From the NCBI GenBank assembly GCA_027923505.1, contig BROI01000009.1, forward strand, positions 558,001 to 622,000: 64,000 nucleotides of DNA. The letters run 5' to 3'. Positions 11,043 to 60,301 of this stretch are shown piece by piece. A program made the translations under genes and the position numbers. The stretch's first letter is position 1. Every line of letters begins with the position of its first letter. The notes below the pieces were generated by a model that saw only the letters and a program-made list of their open reading frames with translations, did not search any database and was not told the DNA's origin. This DNA comes from Mayamaea pseudoterrestris. Lineage: Eukaryota.

Positions 11043-14000
11043 ATGAAGCACGGAGCAGTCGTCGTTGCGTCGCTCCTCGGCCTTGCGGCTACCGCTTCGG
11101 CGAGTAGCTGGATCGTGAAGGAAAACGATTGGGAGAAGCGAAGAAACATCCGCGGCCTTGCCAGCGGCTCTGGCGCCGTTAATCCAGTAGCTGGAGGAGG
11201 CGGCGGACACTCTGGAGGATCCGGAGGACGCGCTGGTGGATCTGGCGGAAACGCCGTGAATCCTGGAGGTGATAGCGGCGGCGGCGGGGGAGGCTCCGGC
11301 GGTGGAGTCCAGCCTGTCCAGCCAGGCGGCGATGACAACAGTGGCCCAAGCGGCGGATCTGGTGGAAATGTGCGACCAGTCCAGCCGGGAGGCGGAGGAG
11401 GAGACAGTGGCGGCCCAGGAGGCGGCTCCGGCGGAGGCGCTGTTCCACCACAGCCAGGTACGTTACGTGTTGGAACGAGAGACTCTGCCTCGTTGAGTGA
11501 GCTTGATTTTACGAGATTTTAGTCGAGGACCTTTCTTCTCACACTCTACCTTTTCATCATCTTCTTTCTGCTCTTTCTGCACTTACAGAACAACCCGTTC
11601 AACCGGAAGGGCCCGGGTCTCCTCCATCTGGCAAGACCGGAAGTGGCGGATCTCCAGTTCCCTTCTTGCCTCCGCCGGCTCCAACCACGCCAGGCGGTCC
11701 ACCGAGCGTTCCGGTTGTCCCACAGCCGACTCCTGGCGCAGTCCCTTCTCCACCAGTCATGGTCACCATGAAGCCAGTTGCTGGATTTCCAGTACAGCCA
11801 CCTACTTTTGTGGGACCACCGCCGACGACGGTCTTTCCTCCGGCACCTACGACACCGCAGCTTCCTCAGACCACGGCGCCCGTTACCACTGTTCCTCCAC
11901 CTACTTTCGTAGGGCCACCGCCGACCATGGTGCAGCCGCCGACAAGCATTGTCCCGCCGCCAACGACCGGAGTATTGCCAACGACTCCTCAAGTTCCGCA
12001 GCCAGTGGCTCCTCCAACCATGGTGCAGCCGCCAACGAGCATTGTTCCACCACCAACCACTGGAGTTCTGCCAACGACGCCTCAGGTGCCGCAGCCAGTG
12101 GCTCCTCCCACCATGGTGCAGCCGCCGACGAGCACTGTTCCGCCTCCAACAACGGGTGTATTGCCAACGACGCCTCAAGTTCCGCAGACAATGGCGCCAG
12201 TCCCTGGTGTTCCAACTTTCGTAGGACCTCCTCCAACAATGATTCAACCGCCAAGCACGGGAGTTACGCCAACTGCTCCAGTCATGCAGCCAGGGGTTCC
12301 AACAACTGTCCTTCCACCTTCCATGGGAGCTCCAACGACACCACAGCTACCGCAGACGAACGCTCCTGTCGCTCCACCAACGATGGTTCAGCCACCGTCA
12401 CCACTTGTGCCACCGCCAACGCAAGCAGAAATCACACCGCCTCCGGTCACGCCGCAGCTTCCACAGCCTCAAGCGCCGGTACCAGGCGCTCCAACTATTG
12501 GCCAGCCGACGCCACTGGCACCTCAGGCTGCACCAGTACCGGTTCCAGCCATTCCTCCAGCTTCGACGCCAGTCGCAGTTCCGTCTCCACAAACGCCTAA
12601 TTTCAATGGTGGCGGTGACACGGATGATGGCGACTTTGGCTCGGGTGGTGTACTTCCGCCGTTTGCATCGCCCGCCATTGCGCCGAGTCTTGGGCAGGCC
12701 CCACAAGCGTTCCCAGTTCCAACGACCGTTCTGCCGCCGAGCCAAGTCACACCATCGGCACCAGTTGTTCCCCAGTTGCCGCAACCAGGCGCTTCTCCAG
12801 TTGCAACTCCTGTGCTAGCTCCTCAAGCTTTTCCGGTCCCAACTATAGGTGGTACGCCAACGACCGTTCTGCCGCCGAGCCAAGTCACACCGTCTGCACC
12901 AGTGGTTCCTCAGCTGCCGCAACCAGGAGCTTCTCCAGTCGCAACTCCTGTGCTAGCTCCTCAAGCTTTTCCGGTCCCAACTACAGGTGGTACGCCAACG
13001 ACCGTTCTACCGCCGAGCCAAGTCACACCATCTGCACCGGTGGTTCCACAACTGCCGCAACCAGGGGTGACTCCAGTCGCAACTCCTGTGCTAGCTCCTC
13101 AAGCTTTTCCGGTCCCAACTACAGGTGGTACGCCAACGACCGTTCTGCCGCCGAGCCAAGTCACACCATCGGCACCAGTGGTCCCGCAAGTGCCGCAACC
13201 AGGGGCTTCTCCAGTTGCAACTCCTGTGCTAGCTCCTCAAGCTTTTCCGGCCCCAACTACCGGTGGTACGCCAACGACCGTTTTGCCGCCGAGCCAAGTC
13301 ACACCGTCTGCACCAGTGGCTCCACAGCTGCCGCAACCAGGGGCGACACCTGTTCAAACGCCGACGATTGTTCAGCCGCCGACAAACGCCCCAGACATTC
13401 CACAAGGTAGTCAAGCTCCGGCCATTAATGGAGGTCCGCAAGTTCCAACGCCTGGAGTTCCAAGTCCGGCAACTTTCCCGTCTCCTGCTTCCATGCCGGT
13501 CCCGCTACCGGTGATCCCATCGCCAATTGCTAGTCCCGTTGCGTTCCCATCTCCAGCGGGCATGCCCGCTATTCCTATGGTTCCAGGACCAGGCACTCCA
13601 GCGCAAGCTCCAAGTAACACTATTGTTGATGATGATGGATTTGGTTCGGGCGGAGTTCTCCCTCCGTTCACTTCGCCAGCCATTGCACCCAGTATTGGAC
13701 AAGGACCACAAGTTTTCCCTAACGTGCAAACACCTACCTTTGTCTTGCCGCCTAGCCAGGAAGAAACGACCAACGCGCCTGCAATTCCGCAAGGCAGTCA
13801 AGCGCCGGCGATTGCGGGAGGCCCAAATGTTTCTGTTCCGAGCCCTGCTTCTTTCCCAGCGCCAGTGCCACTCCCAGTGGTTCCTTCTCCAGTTGCTTCT
13901 CCGGTCCAGCTTCCAGCGCCTACAATGGGACAGCCAATTCTTCCTGCTATCCCACAGCCAGTGACTATTCCTGTCCAAAGCCCGATTCAGCTTCCAACAC

Positions 14001-15317
14001 CTACAATTGCACAGCCGATACTTCCTGCTGTCCCACAACCAGCAGCGATGCCTGCGCAAAGTCCGATCAAATTGGACGACGATGATATTGGTTCAGGTGG
14101 TGTGCTCCCTCCGTTTGCTTCGCCAACTTTTGACGCGCCAGCCATCCCGCAAGGAAGTCAAGCTCCGGCCATTGCAGGAGGACCGAATGTTCCAGTTCCA
14201 AGCAGCGGTACAACAACTCCTCCAATCCTCCCCGCCGTGCCGGCACCAGTGGCCGAACCTGTGCAAACACCTGTCCAAATGCCATTCTCGCAGAATGGAG
14301 AATCAGATGACGGTTTCGGTTCAGGCGGTGTGCCACCTCCATTTGTTTCGCCATCGTTCGATGCTCCAGCAATTCCACAAGGCAGTCAAGCTCCAGCCAT
14401 TGCAGGAGGACCGAATGTATCACCTCCAGTCCTCCCAGTCGTTCCAGCGCCTGTGGCTGCTCCTGTGATGATTCCTGTTCAGACGGATGACGGCTTTGGA
14501 TCAGGCGGGGTGCCTCCTCCGTTTGCGACGCCTACATTTGACGCGCCAGCCATTCCACAAGGAAGTCAAGCTCCGGCCATTGCCGGAGGACCGAATGTTC
14601 CAAGTCCTCCAGTCCTACCCGCCGTCCCGGCGCCCGTATTTGCTCCGGTGCCCCTTCCAGTTCAGACAGACGACGGTTTCGGTTCTGGTGCTATAATTCC
14701 TCAGTCAACCGAAGCGACTGCTGGCGACCTTGATGCAGTAACTGGCGTAGAATCTGGAAAAGCACCTGATGAGTTTGGCCTGAGATTATATTGGAACGAG
14801 ACGTACCGTTGGCAGGGCGAAAGCGTCGAGAGAAACTGGTGCATGCGCTGTGATGACGATGAGTAAGTGGCTTGTTCTATTCGTGTCACAACGAGGTTTC
14901 AAGTGTGTATCTTTCTTACGTTGAAACCATTTCGTTCACAATTACAGACCTGAGTGCAGTGCGGGCCGCCGCGTCTACCTCACCGACTGCGACACCGACA
15001 TGATTACGATCTGGAGCTGGGTTGACAACAAAGATGATACTTACTTCCTCAAGATTGCTGGAACCGACCTTTGTTTGGGTGCCGATGGCAATTCGGATGC
15101 CATTAGCATGCAAGGCTGCGACGACACGAACGCGCTCCAGCGCTGGATCATGAATGGAGGCAGCCCAACGAAAGACACCCAGTTTGAGCTTCAGCCAGCC
15201 TTGGATTCCAATCTTTGCGCGCACAGCTCTCATCATCCACGTCTCGGTGAGTTGCTCTTCCTTCAGGACTGTGCCATTGCTCGTTATGCGACTACCTCGC
15301 TTTGGACCATGGTATAA
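11043..15317 (+). CDS. Large secreted Gly-rich/Pro-Thr-rich repeat protein with C-terminal Cys/Trp ricin-B-like domain; introns 11458..11588 and 14863..14947
   Basis: Signal peptide and RRNIRGL; both GT-AG introns restore frame between ORFs 11043, 11666 and 15000. C-terminus LRLYWNETYRWQGESVERNWCM...DLCL...QRW...HHPRLGE. Confidence 0.8.
11918..12195 (+). repeat. Coding tandem repeat, 93-bp (31-aa) unit, 3 copies
   Basis: ACCATGGTGCAGCCGCC recurs at 11924, 12017 and 12110. Confidence 0.9.
12719..13350 (+). repeat. Coding tandem repeat, 138-bp (46-aa) unit, about 4.5 copies
   Basis: CCAACGACCGTT recurs at 12719, 12857, 12995, 13133 and 13271. Confidence 0.9.
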
Positions 15318-25583: not shown

Positions 25584-27886
25584 CTACTCGTCAGCCGCTG
25601 GGTACGTCGCTTGGTAGGAATTAAGTCGAGTCGAAGCCGACGTGGCACGATTCTGGACATGACGCATTGCGCTCATATCGCCTCGCTGCATGTCTTGGGC
25701 CGTACAAACACTCGACCGCTTGCGGTAACTTGAGGCGGCCTTTTTCGTTGATTCCTTGATGTCTGCAGTAAATGGAGAGGACTTCAATATGTCGCACATA
25801 ATTTGCGTGTTGGTGTAAAAGAGCACACCCATGATCTGCCGCATCTGCTGCGCATTATATACGGAACCCGTTTCATATGCGCGGTCAGTGAAATATTTCT
25901 TGAAAAATGAACACAAAAGAATCAGAGACTTGGCTGACAATGGCAAGACAGGCTGTGTACCTTTATTGAAGCAGTGCACTACGTCGTATAGTGCTGTATG
26001 AGTCTGGTCATATTTGAATTGGTTCAAATGGATTGCTTTAGTGAAGGCCGCGTAGACTCTTGACTTTGGTTTCGTTGCGCCAGACTTCAAAGTGCTAATT
26101 AATTTTAGCTCGTCTTCCCCGAGGATCTTTCGAAATTCCTTGCCGGTTGCGTCGTAACTGTTTATATTCAAACAAGGGTCATCTTCGGTAAGGTTCATGG
26201 TTTGGAGAACCATATGAACCTCGTTTTCCGGCATGGCTTTGACATGCTTCATCATTGTGGCCAAGTACTTTTTGGGTCCCTCCAAAGTCGTCACGTCTAG
26301 AATCCACTTCGTTTTACGCTTTCCACAATAGTTATTGTGCTTTCTTGCAATTGTACCTATGCATGCGATGTAAAGAGCCAGAAAAAGAATCAGTCATGTT
26401 CAATAACCATGTGTCTGTCACCGCCATGCATTTCTTGTTCGTAATGAGACTTACCAGACGCTTTTTCAGCGGCCAAATTAGGGTACATGCATTTGACAAC
26501 CCGGCATGACATTTTTGCGTACTCATTGTTAACGGCAACCGAGCCAGCCGCCTTGTCAAAACTGTCTTTGCGTCGTACCCAAGAAGGACATTTCTCAAAC
26601 TCCTTGTCGCTGTCAGTCAAGCCAGCAATATCATCATGGGCGACAATTTCGCGCTGCTTGAGAGGCAAACTTTCATCCTCGTCACTGCCCGCCAAACCAG
26701 CAGCATCGCCATTATTGTGAATCTTGCGCTGTACACAAGGCCAACGCTTCTCCTGGTCCATGCCTCTCTCGTCAGTGGAATTACACGTGCGCTGTGTGCG
26801 TGGAGGTGTATCATCCTCGACTGCTGTGCTGGCGACAATGTTACTGTTCTTCTCGGCCAAACGACAAACATTGACTTGCTTGAAAGAACGACCGTCATCC
26901 TGCTCAATGTTAAACGTCGCCGAATCAGCAAACTTGCTTTTAAATGAGCGCTTGGCAGTTTTGCTTGGAGGTGTATCATCCTCGACTGCTGTGCTGGCGC
27001 CGTTGTTACTGTTCACCCCCGCCGAACGACGAGCATTGACTTGCTTGAAAGAATGTCCGTCATCCTGCTCAATGTCAAACGTCGCCGAGTCAGCAAACTT
27101 GCTTTTGAATGCGCGCTTGGCATTTTTGCTTGGAGGTGTATCATCCTCGACTGCTGTGCTGGCGCTGGCGCCATAGTCAATGCTCTCCTCCTCCGAGCAA
27201 ACAGACATGTCTTGCTCAAGAATCATATGGCCAAACCGCTGATAACCATTTGTTGTCGAGCCAGTGCATGCGCGCTTGTGTTGGTCACTATCATCCTCCG
27301 AATCTGAGGTGATAGTATTTTTGTGCTGCATTGATGCGCGTTTCTTGGCGTAAGCACTTGTGATCGGTATGCGAGAACCAAGCTCTTCTTCAGAATCAGA
27401 GTCATAGAGATCAAGATTCCGTTTCTTTGGGCTATCAGTCGCGGATGCTTTGTGAAGCCGTTTGAAAGTAACACTTCGACCATAGGCGCAGCTTGCCTTG
27501 AGGGTTTCGATAGCTGGTTTGGGGGGCGGACTCTCCTCAAAGCTTCCTTCATCACAACTGTAGAAGCTCTCTTCATCGCTGCGTTCAGCAATGGCCAAGC
27601 AGCTGCCCTTGTTGTTCATTGTCGTGATCGAGTCGCCATCGACGACAACAATTTGGCGACTCTCCTGGTCGCTCACCTTCTCGCTGCCACTCGTTTTGAC
27701 GTGAGTGCTCATAGGAATAAAGCTATTTTCCTTCCGCGCTTGCAGCTTTGCACTGGGTGCGATTGCGCGACGAGCCAATGGACGGTGGGCTTCTCCGCCA
27801 TCGAGAAGGTAGTCACCGTCCATTGACATTCCAGGGGCCGAACCCCGGCCCCGATTGTTTGATTTTGTTGAATTTGTCGCCATCAT
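25584..27886 (-). CDS. Hypothetical protein: disordered repeat-bearing exon 1 plus conserved exon 2 (intron 26357..26454)
   Basis: GTAAGT donor and CATAG acceptor (phase 1) fuse ORFs 26390..27886 and 25584..26294. Confidence 0.75.
26802..27165 (-). repeat. Coding tandem repeat, 165-bp (55-aa) unit, about 2.2 copies
   Basis: GGAGGTGTATCATCCTCGACTGCTGTGCTGGCG at 26802, 26967 and 27132. Confidence 0.9.
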
Positions 27887-52085: not shown

Positions 52086-52757
52086 GGTAATTGAAGGTCG
52101 GTGGGAGGTGGCGGCAGGTGGCAGTGATTGCTTCGAGTGTCACTATTTGCTGGTGCGGTTGATGCTCACTCAGCGCGTTTCTGTTCCTGTCTACCCGATC
52201 CTCTACAATGCTTTCTTGCTAAGATATTTGTTCGGATCGCAATAGACAAGCAACCGTGATCCTTGGTTGATTGCTCCACAGAAGACTTCTAAATCTTCGT
52301 GGGTTGGTGGTCTGCGGCAGCATCATCGCCGAATCGCTTGAGGTGCGCTGCTGACGTCACTAAGAGGCGCGCGCCATTTTTTTAAATTTATCAAGCGTTG
52401 GTGCATGTGCTCTGTTACCGTGGTTGCTATGTTGTTTTGCTTTGCTATCATACTGTACTAATGTAAAACCAAGTCGTCCATGTGAGGGCCTCCTGGTTTT
52501 TAAAGTGGTTCTGCTAGAGCAGAGAGGCCCACACAATGTCGAAAGTAGCCATGGGCTTCAGGGCTGGCCTAACTTTGTTGAGCAATGCACGATTTGATGG
52601 AGCCACATTGTATTGTAAATATGCTGTCTCGCTTTGCCGCTAACAGTACGTATGTTAAATGCAAGTCCTTGTGGGATTTTTTCTAGGTGCCTATACGTCC
52701 CACACAAAGAGGCATTGACAATTGACATTTGTATATTTTCATGGGCCCAGATATGAT

Positions 52758-53191
52758 TGTTGTTATGGTAATTCAGTCGAGGTCAACTGAAGGGCTCGGT
52801 GGTTACTACTTGCAAGTAACTAGCAATCAAAGAAGGTTTGCTTTGTTTGGTAACTGTGAGTGTTTAGTGTTACTGCTATAATTTACTGCCTTTGCAGGCC
52901 GAGTCTCGCCGAGGTGCGGGCTTGCTTGGGCCTGCTATGTATTATAGCCAGTGAACTTGCCGTCTTGCGGGTAATTAGGGTGCTTTGGCGTTTGTAGCCA
53001 TTATTAACTGGTGATTGAACAAATAGTTAGAGAGTAAGTCAGTTGGATGCTTCGCCATCCCCTTGCCAATGGCGAGGCCTGCATCGCCATGGTCAGTCTG
53101 TGGCGAGGCTGGTTTGTGTGGACCGTACCGAATCCCGCCTGATCCGTCGATGTCGCATGGACATCCATCTATGTCGCATACACATCCAACA
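52758..53191 (-). repeat. 3' LTR
   Basis: Matches 59279..59712 except at three positions. Confidence 0.95.
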
Positions 53192-53200
53192 CTCCCTTTT
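53192..53200 (-). other. Polypurine tract AAAAGGGAG
   Basis: Purine run directly before the 3' LTR on the element sense strand. Confidence 0.8.
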
Positions 53201-53212
53201 CGGTAGGTACCC

Positions 53213-56200
53213 TTACCAGCCCTGGACTGTGAGCCGGTGCTTGGTGAGGATCTCTAATGGTACACTCTTGGTGAGGATGTCAGCCCGTTGCTCCTCCGTA
53301 TCGATGGGTAGGATGCTGATCTCGCCTGAGTTGACGTAGCTGCGGAAGTGGTGATACTGCACATTGATGTGCTTGGTGCGCGGGCGCATCTTGTGTACGT
53401 TGCTAATTTCCAGGCAAGCGCTGTTGTCCTCGAACACCTTGCAGTGTAGCGTTGGTGTGACGGTATCGAACTTGAACCCTGCAGCTTTGAGTTCCTTAGT
53501 CAGTTCCATCAGTGGTATGACCTCACGTAGCGCTGTGCTGAGTGCTATGTACTCCGACTCGGTGGTGGATAGGGCGATTTGAGTCTGCATCTTGCTGGCC
53601 CACACGAGCGGGCATCCTGCATAATAAATGATGTACCCGGTCCTTGACCTGGCGGTGTCAGGGTCGGTAGGCGCCTCGTTGGGATCCCAGTCGCCTATCC
53701 AGTTGGCGTCGACGTAGCACTCAAAGGAGTCACTGGATGGCCGGTAAATCATGCCCTTGTCCCTGGTCCCAGCGAGGTAGCGGCATATCCACTTGATGGC
53801 CTTGCCGTGCTCTTGCTTGGGGTCACTGGAGAACCGAGCGCATTGGTGGACGGCTTGGGCTATGTCTGGTCTTGTGCACCTTTCTAAGTGATTCAGCTTG
53901 CCCAGCACCGACCTGTAGTCGAAGCTTTGGTCGAATGGGTCCGAGGTGGAGTGTCTGGTGAGGGTCTTGGACGTACAAGCTGGGGTCTTCTTGAGAGCCA
54001 CATTTGGTAGGTCGAGTGAGACGTCGCGGAGTATCTGCTCTATCAAGTGAGGCTGTGTGAGATGGATCTCGTCTCCCTTCTGCTCGATTTTAACCCCTAG
54101 GAAGTCCCCTAGCTCGCCCTCCACCGTGAGGTTGAGGCCTGTGTCCCGCATGTCTTGGAGGATCCTCTCGATTTCGGCTTTGTCGGGGCCACAGAGGATG
54201 CTATCGTCGCAGTAAAGGACGTATAGGGAGGACCCTCTGTGGAATAAGCACTCGTCCACTTTGCTCTGTTGGAATCCGACACTCTTTAACTTGGCCACTA
54301 GGTGCTCGTTCCATGTGCGCCCTGAGTCGCATCCCCCGTAGGTGTTCTTCTTGACGTGTAGTACGTACTCCCCTGGCTTGGCGCCTGGGTACTCGAATCC
54401 CTTGGGTATCTCCATGAACACCGTGGTGGATTTGGCCTCGGCTTGATTGTAGGCTTGGACGAAGTCTATTTGCCGCGTGTGCCACTTGAGCTGCAAGGCC
54501 TTGGCAATCACTAAGCGGATAGTGGCCCAGGAGGCTACCGGCGCGTAGGTCTGGTCATAGTGCACTCCTTTAACCTGCTTGGATCCATCCAAGTTTAGGC
54601 GGGCCTTCCACTTGTAGATTTCGCCCGTGGTGATCCTTCTCTTGCGCTTCATTGCCCATACCGCAGGGAGTGGTACCACTCCTTCGGGCACTTGGGCCCT
54701 CGGGACAACCTCCCAGATTCCGTTGTGAGCTTGATCATCAATCTCCTTCTGGGCTGCCTTGAGGAACTCTTCCTTGTCCTCGGACTGCATGGCCTGGTGC
54801 CAGTACATGGTGTCTTCGGCCGACCCGGCGGGGAAGGGGGCTGGTGTCGCGAACTCGCGTGGTAGCGCCAACGCTTCGTAGGCAACCACACTCCCTTGAA
54901 CGTGCTGCATCTCTTGTTCCATGGACTCGACCAAGTAGTCCAGGTTGGCCGGGTTGGGGCTCTCCTTGAGTAGTTCCGACCTCATGGCTTGGATGAGTTC
55001 GGTGGGGTTCTTCCCGCCTCGTATTTGCGACCTGTACTGGCGGCCTTCCTCGGTGAGCTTGCGCTGGCGCTGTGACCTCCTGAGAGGCGGGCCATCTGGC
55101 TCCCTTGTGGGCTCTGGAGTGGGACCGTCCGGGCTCCCTTCTTCGTTGGCCGCTGGGTCTATTGGGTCGGGCGCGTCCGGTTGTTCTGGGACCCCGTGGG
55201 CCCCCGGTGTAGTGGACCCGGCCGGTCCGTCGGGCTCCTGGGGTTCAGAGGCTTCTTCGAAAGTGACCTGTGCCGGGGGACCGTTGAGGGTTTCGTTGCC
55301 TGGGTGCAGTGTCTCCTGTGGGGAGGCTCCCTTGTTGGCAGTGAGGAAGTGGCACTTGTCCTGCCAGTGTGAAGTTGGTAGGCAATCATTGAAGGACTTG
55401 CGCATGGTCTGAAAGCTTGGGTCAAAGTGTACGTGAAACTGTGGGGAGGCGAGGCCGGTTTCGAGTGACAGTACCAAGGCCACCGACCTGGCGTGGTGGG
55501 CTGAAGGGCCCAGGTATACCCCTACCCGCGCTCGGTCTACCCACTTGTCCTTGCTGGTCACGTAGGTGTACACGGGGCACCCGAACAGGGAGTAGTGCTT
55601 GGGATTGAAGGAGGCAGGGGCCCCGGTGAAGGTCTCCACTGGTATGCTGTTGTCTTTGAGGCCTGGCGTGATGTTCTTGGTCTCATTGGCCAGCCTTAGC
55701 GCGTAAGGCCACAAGTTGGCATTCACCGCAGTGGGCCATTGGCGGGCGGCGTGGATCATCATTGTTCTGGCTTGATCCTGTAGCTCCCTGATGTGTCGCT
55801 CAGCTATACCGTTCTGAAAGTGGGCATTGACGCCGCAGAATGTGAGCACTTGGTTGCTGGCCGTGCACGCGTTTCGCCACTGATTGTCGGCAAACACTCC
55901 ATTGTCTGCCCTGTAGTGTTGTATTTGGACTCCAACCGAGGAGGCGTAGAGCTCGAATGCTGCCTTGGCCTCCAGGGTTTCTTCGGCCGAGGTGGTCTTC
56001 TGCAAGTGGATGAAGGAAAATCTGCTGAACTGGTCCACAAAGATAGTGGCGCACATGTAGCGGCGTTTAGTCGGTATGCCCCTCAAGTTGGGCTATCAAT
56101 CCCGGAGTATAGGAGACCAGTTGGTCAACCGAGACACATTCCCCAGGCCGGGTGGCCAGTACCTTGGAGTCCTCTAGCTGGGCTTGCGTAGGCTTGGTCC

Positions 56201-57818
56201 TCCATGGTCTCTTCGTGGCCTTGCCGTAGAGGCAGCTGGTGCACAGGGGCACTGGACACTTGGCTAATCGACTTGGGAGGATGCCCATGCGGGCCATTGC
56301 TTGTAGTCGCCTTGGGGACGCATGGTTGAGCTTATGGTGCCAGCGCAGGAATTCTGCCGAGGCATCTTGCGGTCTGGTGTCCTCCTCGTCCGGGCTAACC
56401 TGGTCTTGGATCGAGCCTCGTCCGGCCGGGCCGTCAAGCTGGAAATCCGTTGTCAGCGGCTGGGTGCGAGGCGGCTCGGCCGGAGTGACCGTGGGCGATG
56501 GGTGCCCGTCGTCGGGCGGGGAGGATCCCATGTAGTCATTCCCCCCCGGATGCCAGGCGGAAGACTGTGCTGGGAGGTCGTACGGGAGCACGGCCGCGGC
56601 GTAGCAGGTAGGATGCTCGTCGCTGACCGGTGGGATGGTGGCGAGGAAAGCGGAGTAGTTGGCAAAGCCGGGTGCCGAGTTGAGAATGCCCACATTGGAG
56701 GCGGGATCCAGGGGCACCGTGCGTTGGTGTCGGCGCTGATCCCAGTAGAGGACAATGCGATCCGAGTAGGTGAGTGAGTAGGTGCCATCCTTGTCTGGGT
56801 CGTGATCGTTGGCCAGTTGTGCCCAGTGCTGGGGGCTCAGGAGCCGACTGTGCGCTTTGGCGTCGTAGATCAAATTGGGGATGTCGATGGTGTAGGGGGC
56901 TCCCTCGTCGTCCTCAATGGTGTAGCGGCCGTGACCCTGGGCGAGTGGACTGCCAGGCGAGCCATGGATGCCGGTGAGGGTGTGCTGGATCGCCTTTGGT
57001 GGCGAGTAGAAGTCCGATAAGTGGCTGGTGATGCAATAAGATGCGCAATTGTCAACTCGAAGTTGGAGGGAGTCGGTATCGAAGCGGACTTTGCGTGAGG
57101 ACGAGCGGCCGGTGGGGCAGTGGGAGGCGAACGCTAGCCATGGTGACAAGCGTCCATCGGTGCGCGTGGTGGCCCATTCGACGAGTGTTGACAGTGGTGT
57201 CCCACCGTTGTGTTGAGTAGGTGCGCGTGTCGTATCTGGAGGTGCGCAAGTGTGACTGTCCGCTGAATAGGTGAGGCGTAGTTGTGAATCTCCCTTGTTG
57301 ACTGCGCTGGTAGGAGGCGAGAACGGCGTCGCCTTTGGGTTGCGATAAAGGTAGTTCTTATAGGCGTTATACGCTCGCGCCCGTCGTATGAAGTCAACTG
57401 GGACGAAGGGAGCTTGACGTGTGTTGTAGCGCGTGGGCGTCTCCCTTTTAGGACGATGGCCGAGGTGTGCGTCGGCCGTGACGCTGATAGCCCAGCAGGC
57501 AATGTGATAGTAGCAGAGGCGACGGGCCCAAGTGCGTGACTTGCTGCGCCGAAGGTGGTAGCTGAAGGGGTTGACGGACTTGCGCTTGCGTCGCTCGGCC
57601 TTGTAGGGAGGCCATGGCCATGGTAGATGGTGGAACCAGCTCAGCGCTCGGTCCCATAGTTGAAGCGGACTGGCCGAGGAAGGTTTGGAGGTGTGGCGCG
57701 AGTTGGTGCTGGCGCTCTGGTGCAGTGTAGCTGGTGTGTGGCAGATGAATCGCAGGGCGTTCAGGAGTTTACTCATCAGCCCGTAAAACATTAAGATAAA
57801 GTTCCACGGGCATCCCCG
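53213..57818 (-). CDS. pol: Copia Pol (protease, integrase, reverse transcriptase, RNase H) with a 1-bp frameshift near 56086
   Basis: VDNCAS protease; WHHKLNH...CTSC; YRADNG...QNGIAER; YKWKARL, QIDFVQAY, LYCDD; YVDANW, LSTTESEY, FEDN, ADILTK. Confidence 0.92.
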
Positions 57819-59240
57819 TCAGCTGCTCTCGTCGCCGCTGTCCTGTTGGTAGATGGCCATTTGCGCTTGGAGCGTCGATGCTGGGGTGGCTGTGGCGGCC
57901 TCCGGCGTGGCGGCCTCGGGGGTCGCAATCTTGCCTTCCTTCTGTGCCTTGTGGCAGTCGGCCGCTGCGTGCTGGCCCCACTTGGCGTGGTGCGGGCACC
58001 AGGTCCAGTCCAGCTCCTTGCCCTTGGCGTTCTTGGCCTTCTTGTGGAGCTTTCCATCCGTTGGTGGGACAAGCATCCACGCGGGAGTCTCCTTGACCCG
58101 GTCGGCCCGATCTGCGCGTGGCGCCTTTGCCGCCTTCGCCTTGAGCGCCTTGATCTCCGTTTGCAGGGCTATGACTTTGGCGTCCGCCTTGGTGGCTTCG
58201 TTCCACTCTTTGGCCGTTACTTTCATGCGATAGTACGCCGAGACTTGAGCCATAAGGCCTTCCGGTGTGAGGTCCGGATTGAGGCTGCTGGTGTAGTCAT
58301 CCTGTTTGCGCTCTATCATGCGCTTGAACGCCCCGTTGGTCACTGTGTTGTAGGCCTGGAAGAGGATCGACAGCAAGTTGGGTGTGGTCTGCCCCCGGTT
58401 CTGTAGATCCTGGTCAACCCTGCGCACGTGGTCGTGAAACTTCTCGATGTTGTAGTCGAAGACTTCCGCTAGCTTGGTTCCTGAGCAGTCCATGATTTCC
58501 TTGTGGAGGTTGAATATGGTGGCCTTGGAGTCAAGCACCGTCTTGGTAATGATAACCATGAGGAGGGCGATGCCCGAGGCAGTGACCACGTCCGAAGCCA
58601 TTCCCTTGAGCTTGTACTCGCTAGCCGACAGGCGGATGCGCGCCTTCATGTCTGGGTCCAGCGACTGAATAATGGTTGAAGCCAGTTGGTTGTCGGCCTG
58701 AGCTTGGCGCGTCTGGGTCCCAAGGAAGGACTTGGCGTACTCTTGGACCTTGGTCATGTCGAGCTTGCCGTACTCCGAAATGAGGTTGGCGGTAGTCAGG
58801 GTGGTCCCCTGTTCGCACTTGGTGAGCGGCACGTCGTAAACGTTCCAGTTGAACTGAGTTCCTTTGTCGTCCAGGTCGGCGAGAAACCCTGAGAGCTCCT
58901 CCGACTTGCCAGAGTACTTCTTGTCGAGTCCCTTGGAGGATTCGATGAATACCTTCATGTTCTTGGCATCGCTAAAGTTCATCGGCTGGTTGGTCGCCAA
59001 TGGCGTAAGCTGGTACGCACTGCTGCTGGGAGCGGCCACCGCTGGTGGAGCACCTTGCTGCGCGGTGGCAGCCAAGGCTTCAGCGACTGCGGCTGCGATG
59101 GCGGCTTGGAGAGCAGCCTGATTGGCTTCCTGGTCCTGGAGGCGACGCACTTCGGTGGCGGCGGCAGCAGCTTCGTTGGCTTGCTGCATGGCTGCAATGC
59201 GTGCAGTCATCTCGGCGATCTGGGCGGCGTGGGCGTCCAT
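57819..59240 (-). CDS. gag: Copia Gag
   Basis: 473-aa ORF just after the 5' LTR; C-terminal WCPHHAKWGQHAAADC Cys/His knuckle variant. Confidence 0.88.
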   Translation of the reverse strand: MDAHAAQIAEMTARIAAMQQANEAAAAATEVRRLQDQEANQAALQAAIAAAVAEALAATAQQGAPPAVAAPSSSAYQLTPLATNQPMNFSDAKNMKVFIESSKGLDKKYSGKSEELSGFLADLDDKGTQFNWNVYDVPLTKCEQGTTLTTANLISEYGKLDMTKVQEYAKSFLGTQTRQAQADNQLASTIIQSLDPDMKARIRLSASEYKLKGMASDVVTASGIALLMVIITKTVLDSKATIFNLHKEIMDCSGTKLAEVFDYNIEKFHDHVRRVDQDLQNRGQTTPNLLSILFQAYNTVTNGAFKRMIERKQDDYTSSLNPDLTPEGLMAQVSAYYRMKVTAKEWNEATKADAKVIALQTEIKALKAKAAKAPRADRADRVKETPAWMLVPPTDGKLHKKAKNAKGKELDWTWCPHHAKWGQHAAADCHKAQKEGKIATPEAATPEAATATPASTLQAQMAIYQQDSGDESS

Positions 59241-59264
59241 TGCTTGTTATGTTTGTTGCGGGTT

Positions 59265-59278
59265 GCGCAGAGGAAGCG
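59265..59278 (-). promoter_or_regulatory. Candidate non-canonical primer-binding site complementary to the initiator tRNA-Met D-arm
   Basis: Plus strand GCGCAGAGGAAGCG(TG) abuts the 5' LTR. No TGG-type PBS is present. Confidence 0.6.
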
Positions 59279-59712
59279 TGTTGTTATGGTAATTCAGTCG
59301 AGGTCAACTGAAGGGCTCGGTGGTTACTACTTGCAAGTAACTAGCAATCAAAGAAGGTTTGCTTCGTTTGGTAACTGTGAGTGTTTAGTGTTACTGCTAT
59401 AATTTACTGCCTTTGCAGGCCGAGTCTCGCCGAGGTGCGGGCTTGCTTGGGCCTGCTATGTATTATAGCCAGTGAACTTGCCGTCTTGCGGGTAATTAGG
59501 GTGCTTTGGTGTTTGTAGCCATTATTAACTGGTGATTGAACAAATAGTTAGAGAGTAAGTCAGTTGGATGCTTCGCCATCCCCTTGCCAATGGCGAGGCC
59601 TGCATCGCCATGGTCAGTCTGCGGCGAGGCTGGTTTGTGTGGACCGTACCGAATCCCGCCTGATCCGTCGATGTCGCATGGACATCCATCTATGTCGCAT
59701 ACACATCCAACA
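59279..59712 (-). repeat. 5' LTR
   Basis: Matches 52758..53191 except at three positions. Confidence 0.95.
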
Positions 59713-60301
59713 ATGATGCGATCATTTGGAGTACTTATAAAATCGGCGCGGCAGGTAGCTAAACAACCTTGCCATCGCCAATCAGAGTCGACAGATACTT
59801 CAACTACGTAGCAGAAAGAATGCATACTAAGTCTTTCAGAAATCAAATTGGCCATTGGCAAATGCTGCTACAAACAACGGTCGCCTACGGCACGCCGGGA
59901 CTTGCCATTCATGCCGAGCTTGATATGCGAGTCGATGTGATTCTTTTAGCGATCGATTGCCCTTAAAACACGAGTGACAAGACTCGGAACTTGCATGTCC
60001 GCAAGTCGTTGATCGGTAACACGAATGCTGAATATAGCCGTTCGTTCCGGTTCGCGTGATTGGACGCGTGGCGAACTGCCGGTAAGTTTGAATTTCGTCC
60101 AAATTGACAGCCAAATTCGGTTGCCGGATGAGAGCTGGTCTTATCTTTCGCCAGTAACGTGGGTTTCATTTTCTCTTTCGCTTCACAAGATGCTCATAAA
60201 TTTATCCAGCGTCTGCGCAATCGCTCTTTGTTGCTCCTGTTCTAGACGCCAACAAACTCGTCATCTTCCAACACCCATTGTCCAGGAACAATTGCATCAT
60301 T

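Follow-up and report, generated by a model that had tools for sequence, protein, structure and literature searches.

A 14-nt site conserved behind the 5′ LTR of diatom-type Ty1/copia elements matches the D-arm of initiator tRNA-Met and may bind a short 5′ tRNA fragment

Among the traits that define LTR retroelements is the choice of primer, which is also used in the taxonomy of the Pseudoviridae (PMC8515867). According to a survey of plant elements, the primers fall into three types, namely a whole tRNA, a half tRNA cut in the anticodon stem, and a self-primer (PMC6317226). The closest described systems to the one reported here are the hemivirus-type elements (Drosophila copia, yeast Ty5, Volvox Osser and 1731), Ty1/copia elements in which a primer-binding site (PBS) flush with the LTR is complementary to an internal part of the initiator tRNA-Met (tRNAi-Met), and not to its CCA end (PMC1181622, PMC8515867, PMC6317226). 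Their primer is given as a half tRNA with its 3′-OH at nt 40, that is, within the anticodon stem-loop at about nt 39–40 (PMC1181622). Ty1 and most plant copia elements (Pseudovirus) use the same initiator Met tRNA species (PMC8515867), but bind the complete tRNA at its 3′ CCA end. Sites matching internal regions of tRNA-Arg and tRNAi-Met have been described in Candida (PMC4139406), and anticodon-loop sites in fungal elements (PMC10886601). In diatoms, copia elements are the main transposons and some of them respond to nitrate stress; the main text of the paper that defined the diatom copia lineages mentions no tRNA or PBS (PMC2806351).

The 64-kb stretch of Mayamaea pseudoterrestris DNA analysed here (the window) carries on its minus strand an intact-looking Ty1/copia LTR retrotransposon of 6955 bp (52758–59712). 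Its features, all on the minus strand, are listed below in the sense direction of the element.

59713..59717, minus strand: upstream copy of the target-site duplication, ATCAT in sense orientation; the empty-site contigs of runs X1 and X2 connect 52752 with 59713 and share these 5 letters
59279..59712 (read 59712 to 59279), minus strand: 5′ LTR, 434 nt, TGTTG...CAACA, with 3 differences from the 3′ LTR
59265..59278 (read 59278 to 59265), minus strand: candidate primer-binding site CGCTTCCTCTGCGC, complementary to nt 10–23 of initiator-type tRNA-Met (D-stem, D-loop, D-stem); conserved in 45 distinct elements
59241..59264, minus strand: remaining 24 nt of the 5′ leader, as far as the gag ATG; unconserved among relatives
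57819..59240, minus strand: gag ORF, 473 aa, no Pfam match; ATG at 59240, ending in TGA at 57821–57819
57779..57811, minus strand: hairpin with an 11-bp stem, likely read-through stimulator, starting 7 nt past the gag TGA
56067..57818, minus strand: first part of pol, in frame with gag behind the TGA, including GAG-pre-integrase (PF13976, E = 7e-07)
56079..56082, minus strand: G run, site of the pol frameshift in this copy; relatives have one continuous pol ORF
53213..56086, minus strand: second part of pol, with integrase core, RVT_2 reverse transcriptase (PF07727, E = 4.4e-34) and RNase H
53192..53201, minus strand: polypurine tract GAAAAGGGAG, adjoining the 3′ LTR; relatives show GAGAGGGAG-TGT at the same place
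52758..53191 (read 53191 to 52758), minus strand: 3′ LTR, 434 nt, identified by comparison of the LTR pair
52753..52757, minus strand: target-site duplication, downstream copy, ATCAT, flanking the 3′ LTR and confirmed by the empty-site contigs

The element is a member of Ty1/copia: its LTRs have TG...CA ends, it is flanked by a 5-bp target duplication, a polypurine tract precedes the 3′ LTR, a Pfam search finds the RVT_2 reverse transcriptase within 53213–56086, and an ORF with the GAG-pre-integrase domain lies upstream of the RVT_2 ORF (relatives have both domains in one protein). Because an empty-site allele was seen in two public runs from two studies (X1 and X2), whose contigs join 52752 directly to 59713 and share ATCAT, the element borders are exact and the insertion is polymorphic. 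Probably it is also recent, in keeping with only 3 differences across the 434 LTR positions.

The candidate site CGCTTCCTCTGCGC starts at the first base past the LTR's terminal CA. On the plus strand it reads GCGCAGAGGAAGCG at 59265–59278, followed at 59279–59280 by TG, which is the terminal CA of the LTR on the sense strand. An earlier reading of this DNA, made from the sequence alone (the sequence-only reading), had given this sequence and its position directly inside the 5′ LTR correctly, and had remarked that no TGG complementary to a tRNA 3′-CCA stands next to the LTR. That remark is accurate as well: the leader contains no TGG, and the first one is the ATG-G of gag. Taken by itself, the 14-mer is unremarkable in the 64-kb window (one match at ≤2 mismatches against 0.82 expected, with at least one match in 58 of 100 shuffles); its significance comes from its being flush with the LTR and conserved in relatives.

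The tRNA complement of the site was examined by scanning the motif GCGCAGNGGAAGCGTG against public viral contigs, which gave at least 120 loci in which ARAGORN predicts 182 tRNA genes. Among the matches listed, the D-arm motif falls within 47 predicted tRNA genes at 46 loci (46 tRNA-Met(CAT) and one tRNA-Pro), where it always begins at tRNA nt 10, or at nt 11 where ARAGORN adds a 5′ base; the remaining 74 loci listed are unrelated sequence. The free D-loop base in the 46 tRNA-Met genes listed is A in 22, G in 17, T in 5 and C in 2. The complement of the window 14-mer plus the CA of the LTR is identical, at 16/16 positions, to nt 10–25 of 22 of the tRNA-Met(CAT) genes listed, these being genes of viral contigs and not of the host. 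Among the matches listed, 35 distinct motif-bearing tRNA-Met genes have a GATCGAAAC-type T-loop, which we take to be the hallmark of eukaryotic initiator tRNAs and thus to mark these genes as initiator-type. The contigs that carry the matching tRNA genes are giant-virus-like or otherwise viral; none of these genes is the host's own. For the human tRNAi-Met D-arm, the sequence-only reading had counted 15 of 16 matching positions, and this figure holds: the human version has C at the variable place, and a published probe directed against the human 5′ tRNA-Met half contains the reverse complement of the 16-mer in this form (PMC2700517).

The window itself contains no tRNA gene. In ten partial genome bins with relatives, the D-arm pattern yielded no tRNAi-Met gene, only more copies of the candidate PBS or unrelated matches, a result uninformative on the hosts' tRNAs; an anticodon-to-T-loop pattern found no tRNA gene in two of these ten bins either. 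Many of the viral contigs in the scan (L003–L120) are of giant-virus type and carry tRNA arrays that include initiator-like tRNA-Met genes, with L046, L048 and L052 each having two or three such genes in tandem.

Relatives of the pol ORF numbered 970 at E ≤ 0.001 among the candidates scored, most of them from contigs of ~6 kb. The best were 46–62% identical over the whole query, and one half-length match reached 76% over 55% of the query. An alignment of the proteins of 31 relatives (A1) was used for a metagenome scan, in which 450 stretches encode relatives, and the best 80 of these 450 correspond to 78 loci. These loci were fetched by reverse transcriptase (RT) protein similarity only (36–64% identity), the site not being used as a criterion. 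Forty-four of the 78 loci, drawn from the best 80 of 450 stretches, carry CGCTTCC[T/C]CTGCGC on the sense strand at ≤1 mismatch, in 46 occurrences altogether, and every occurrence directly follows an LTR-like end, the LTR ends being otherwise unrelated. The 14-mer is placed 2300–3010 nt upstream of the RT match, or 250–1010 nt past its end where the contig crosses the LTR, and one second copy lies 7179 nt past the end of the RT match. The antisense strand of the 78 loci gave zero matches at ≤1 mismatch, with a chance expectation, calculated by hand, of ~0.2 matches per strand in roughly 0.4 Mb; a scan at 2 mismatches added five antisense matches and one sense match, all at unrelated places. 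A scan of prokaryote genome contigs returned 11 further relatives, five with the site in the same position and the other six too short to reach it. Conservation in related elements, on which the sequence-only reading had made its proposal depend, is thus found at 44/78 metagenome and 5/11 genome-contig loci, flush with the LTR end. We regard this comparison of relatives selected by RT as the decisive result, and judging from these alignments the site is a trait of the whole lineage and not of one copy.

Most of the 34 loci that lack the site are too short, and 13 of them were inspected by hand. The contig of L141 ends just beyond its 3′ LTR, and those of L179 and L186 end in a 3′ LTR with flanking DNA behind it; L141 and L179 share their LTR ends with the site-bearing L131 and L183. 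Four loci (L122, L138, L152 and L180) have 190–540 nt upstream of gag without the 14-mer. These may have long leaders, as leader length among the relatives ranges from 9 to 727 nt, or they may have a different site. Among the loci, no different PBS was found at an identified LTR border, and no locus lacking the site showed a 5′ LTR/leader junction.

The 90%-identity clusters of two relatives, themselves 52% identical to the window pol, include proteins named from Phaeodactylum tricornutum and Fragilaria crotonensis, which points to a diatom copia lineage. Neither the single protein nor the alignment found relatives in the viral contigs. Primers published for Blackbeard, Surcouf and PtC34 matched nowhere in the window at ≤3 mismatches. 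The sequence-only reading had named the element CoDi, after the diatom copia lineages of Maumus et al. 2009. The 11 contigs from the prokaryote scan (L199–L209) lie in bacterial genome bins (e.g. a 350-kb contig in a 'Planctomycetota' bin) and encode a eukaryotic copia polyprotein; these bins evidently contain mis-binned eukaryotic DNA, which is probably from diatoms.

The shape of the conservation was profiled over 40 distinct 54-mers (39 from loci plus the window). Within the 14-mer, positions 1–7 and 9–13 do not vary, position 8 has T in 35 and C in 5 elements, and position 14 is C in 35/40. Upstream, the adjoining base is always A (40/40); the second base is C in 34, T in 5 and G in 1 element, and a clade with TA LTR ends is stable. 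Apart from these last bases of the LTR, the flanks of the 14-mer carry ~0–0.3 bits. Because the motif (≤1 mismatch) was used to find the sites, the invariance of positions 1–14 is partly by construction; the contrast with the flanks and the specificity of strand and position do not follow from the search criterion.

Position 8 of the 14-mer pairs with the single variable D-loop base, its T/C matching an A/G in 39/46 of the tRNA-Met genes listed. In a quick tree of 34 RT-RNase H rows, the T/C state switches four times, and at least three switches are required by well-supported branches; this is no more than suggestive of repeated adjustment to host tRNA variants. Pairing stops at nt 10, as the partners of G9 and U8 are not kept though all 46 of 46 tRNA genes have TG there. 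An extended pairing of the window leader with tRNA nt 3–9, hinted at by the L003 tRNA, was rejected, being not conserved in relatives. At position +16 past the LTR (window 59263, two bases past the 14-mer), A is present in 31/40 with unconserved neighbours; this A may pair with tRNA U8, leaving nt 9 unpaired, or may result simply from leaders rich in A. At the opposite end, the base two before the site is not always C, so that tRNA nt 25 would not be needed in the primer, and the LTR's final A is able to pair with U24. A primer with its 3′ end at nt 23 or 24, not 25, and hence consisting of nt 1–23 or 1–24, appears to fit this pattern best.

Eukaryotic initiator tRNAs carry m1G at position 9 and a methylated G at position 26, and in retroviruses the 18-nt length of the PBS is set by m1A58. 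Both m1G9 and m2,2G26 are frequent in eukaryotic tRNAs (PMC10275265), and if those modifications hold in diatoms, nt 10–25 would be the longest stretch of the 5′ half that is free of pairing-blocking modifications.

What is directly observed is where the site lies, that it matches initiator-type tRNA-Met genes exactly, and that it is conserved, within sharp limits, throughout the lineage. We propose, with a probability of about 0.7, that the 14-mer is a lineage-wide PBS for a ~23-nt 5′ fragment of tRNAi-Met, pairing with the whole D-arm (nt 10–23). The cytoplasmic initiator tRNA-Met, bound via its D-arm at the 14-mer, would then act as minus-strand primer. Because an internal tRNA segment has no free 3′-OH, the tRNA would have to be cut after G23 (or U24) by some cutting agent, and this would leave a 23–24-nt 5′ tRNA fragment whose 3′ end the element's reverse transcriptase could extend into U5-R. 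Later, during plus-strand strong-stop synthesis, the primer would be copied back, beginning at nt 23 and halting at nt 9; such a stop would account for the conservation of exactly 14 nt. The 14-nt limit would in that case be set by m1G9, which may thus play a role analogous to that of the retroviral m1A58. Counting against this scheme, the tRNA has its D-arm base-paired and enclosed in its core, and would have to unfold before it could anneal. To our knowledge, no nuclease cuts tRNA after nt 23, and the question is raised of how a 3′-OH arises at this point of a folded tRNA. In diatoms, ~19-nt D-loop/anticodon fragments have been reported for 9 tRNAs, and T. pseudonana has peaks at 19 and 25 nt; tRNAi-Met is not named there (PMC4247016).

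As in the hemivirus-type elements, a 3′-truncated 5′ tRNA fragment would be needed as primer, a need that for the window element is read from its sequence. The difference lies in the extent of the fragment: here nt 10–23 would pair, and the primer of ~23–24 nt would comprise about one third of the tRNA. To judge from the site, the element works like a hemivirus but lacks the group's defining feature, a primer end in the anticodon arm, and the best reading of the D-arm site is as a shorter relative of the copia/Ty5 "half-tRNA" primer. The sequence-only reading had stated that copia and Ty5 use a tRNAi-Met half whose end lies in the anticodon arm, and PMC1181622 backs this; that reading's further statement that it knew of no description of D-arm priming agrees with our literature search and with the three-type list in PMC6317226. 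We found no description of a D-arm primer site in the literature searched; most subscription journals and the Repbase reports were outside this search, and a mention there is possible. Likewise, the 14-mer and its reverse complement, searched as text strings, led to no relevant paper.

Besides its main PBS, Ty1 has extra boxes that pair with the T and D arms of the tRNA. No second tRNA box was found in the window lineage, where matches complementary to tRNAi-Met did not rise above shuffles (68 matches vs 78), and the anticodon arm of the tRNA gave no match of ≥8 nt beyond shuffle level. The overall replication scheme is shared with Ty1 and most plant copia elements (PMC8515867). The fungal GalEa 'conserved hairpin site' (PMC5445492) and the self-priming of Tf1 and TAR (PMC6317226) likewise depart from a tRNA 3′-end PBS at the same position, but the window site differs from them in being not palindromic, in having no partner in the LTR and in matching a tRNA exactly.

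With a D-arm site shared by the whole lineage, the known repertoire would gain a truncated-tRNA primer of a shorter kind. The 14 nt also serve as a signature by which these abundant diatom transposons can be recognised and annotated; standard PBS finders, built on tRNA 3′ ends, would report no PBS in them. A further-reaching version, in which the whole diatom copia lineage primes from a pre-formed ~23-nt 5′ fragment of tRNAi-Met as a fourth primer class, with a 14-nt length owed to the methylated G9, bursts gated by tRNA cleavage under stress, and the fragments or their lack acting as a host brake, strikes us as doubtful. That transposition is tied to cellular tRNA-fragment production is speculative; because copia elements are the main diatom transposons and some are responsive to nitrate stress, such a link would be of ecological interest.

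How the primer's 3′ end would be produced allows a different account, in which intact tRNAi-Met is packaged, annealed via its D-arm and cut in the particle at the end of the duplex, for example by the element's RNase H, without any pre-made fragment. A precedent for such an activity is Tf1, a gypsy-type element whose self-primer is cut by its own RNase H. The inferred primer end coincides with the duplex end, as a duplex-guided cut predicts, and a site that is invariant across hosts is easier to understand without dependence on a host-specific nuclease; the hemivirus precedent, moreover, gives only the position of the 3′-OH and not the activity that cuts (PMC1181622). We rate a cut inside the particle as a substantial possibility, somewhat short of an even one. 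The contig data hold nothing that separates it from a pre-made fragment, and if it were true it would remove the link to cellular tRNA-fragment production. The 14-mer might, instead, be a cis-signal of another kind, serving packaging, dimerisation, translation control or the capture of tRNAi-Met without priming, with the primer binding elsewhere or priming being of another sort. The link of the site to priming is drawn from sequence comparison, and fungal GalEa has a conserved hairpin site of unknown role at the PBS position (PMC5445492). Yet since the position of the primer determines where the LTR ends, a PBS is expected to lie exactly flush with U5, as this site does in 45 distinct elements; beyond the site the leaders are not conserved and can be down to 9 nt in length, too short to hold another site; and a cis-signal would leave unexplained both the exact complementarity to one tRNA segment and the co-varying T/C. 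We consider this account improbable.

Self-priming, with the 5′ end of the element's own RNA folding back on the site as in Tf1 or the plant TAR lineage, is one of the three known primer types and is predicted for the TAR copia lineage (PMC6317226). In 33 elements, the longest LTR complement to the site is 4–7 nt, with a mean of 5.2 against 5.5 in shuffles, and the window contains no second copy of the complement at ≤2 mismatches; the absence of an LTR complement above shuffles in these 33 elements led us to reject self-priming, to which we attach very little weight. Least credible of all is priming by a full-length tRNA at TGGACGCCCAC, a string that overlaps the gag ATG at about 59239–59229 and is complementary over 11 nt, without mismatch, to one tRNA-Lys(CTT) gene of a viral-contig locus (L039), at its 3′ end and including the CCA. 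This string is found 38 nt into the internal region, but the end of the 3′ LTR corresponds precisely to the start of the 14-mer, and the LTR border thereby rules the string out as a TGG-type PBS; furthermore, the matching tRNA-Lys is that of a viral contig, and the string is not kept in the gag starts or leaders of relatives. A better match to another tRNA 3′ end adjoining the LTR, or to the element's own 5′ end, which the sequence-only reading had named as findings that would speak against it, did not turn up.

The arrangement of gag and pol is a further feature of this lineage. In 37 of 38 distinct junctions (the window and relatives among L122–L196), gag and pol stand in the same frame with one TGA between them, and this TGA is usually followed by C and, about 7–8 nt on, by a GC-rich hairpin. 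The 11-bp stem of the window hairpin is present in both the MFE and the centroid structure, with z = –1.05 on its own, and hairpins of a similar GCCC...GGGC kind occur in many relatives, as judged by eye. From its sequence, the gag-TGA-pol arrangement looks like programmed read-through. Candida albicans Tca2 (pCal), also a Ty1/copia element, has an in-frame gag-UGA-pol with a downstream structure together with a PBS like an internal tRNA region, but the tRNA in question is tRNA-Arg(UCU) and not tRNAi-Met (PMC4139406). The same Candida review calls this in-frame gag-UGA-pol of Tca2 unique among LTR retrotransposons (PMC4139406).

Whereas pol of the relatives is a single continuous ORF of about 1350–1450 aa, the window copy has a frameshift in a run of four G, leading to a premature pol stop at 56067–56069. 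The contigs of run X2 break at 56080/56104, right at this frameshift, which means that copies may differ there or that the G run may be mis-assembled. Elsewhere in the window, and unrelated to the element, tandem repeat arrays are present at 12581–13408 (138 nt x5) and 11911–12198 (93 nt x3), with further repeats of 123-nt units at 14078–14608 and of 165 nt x2 at 26797–27126.
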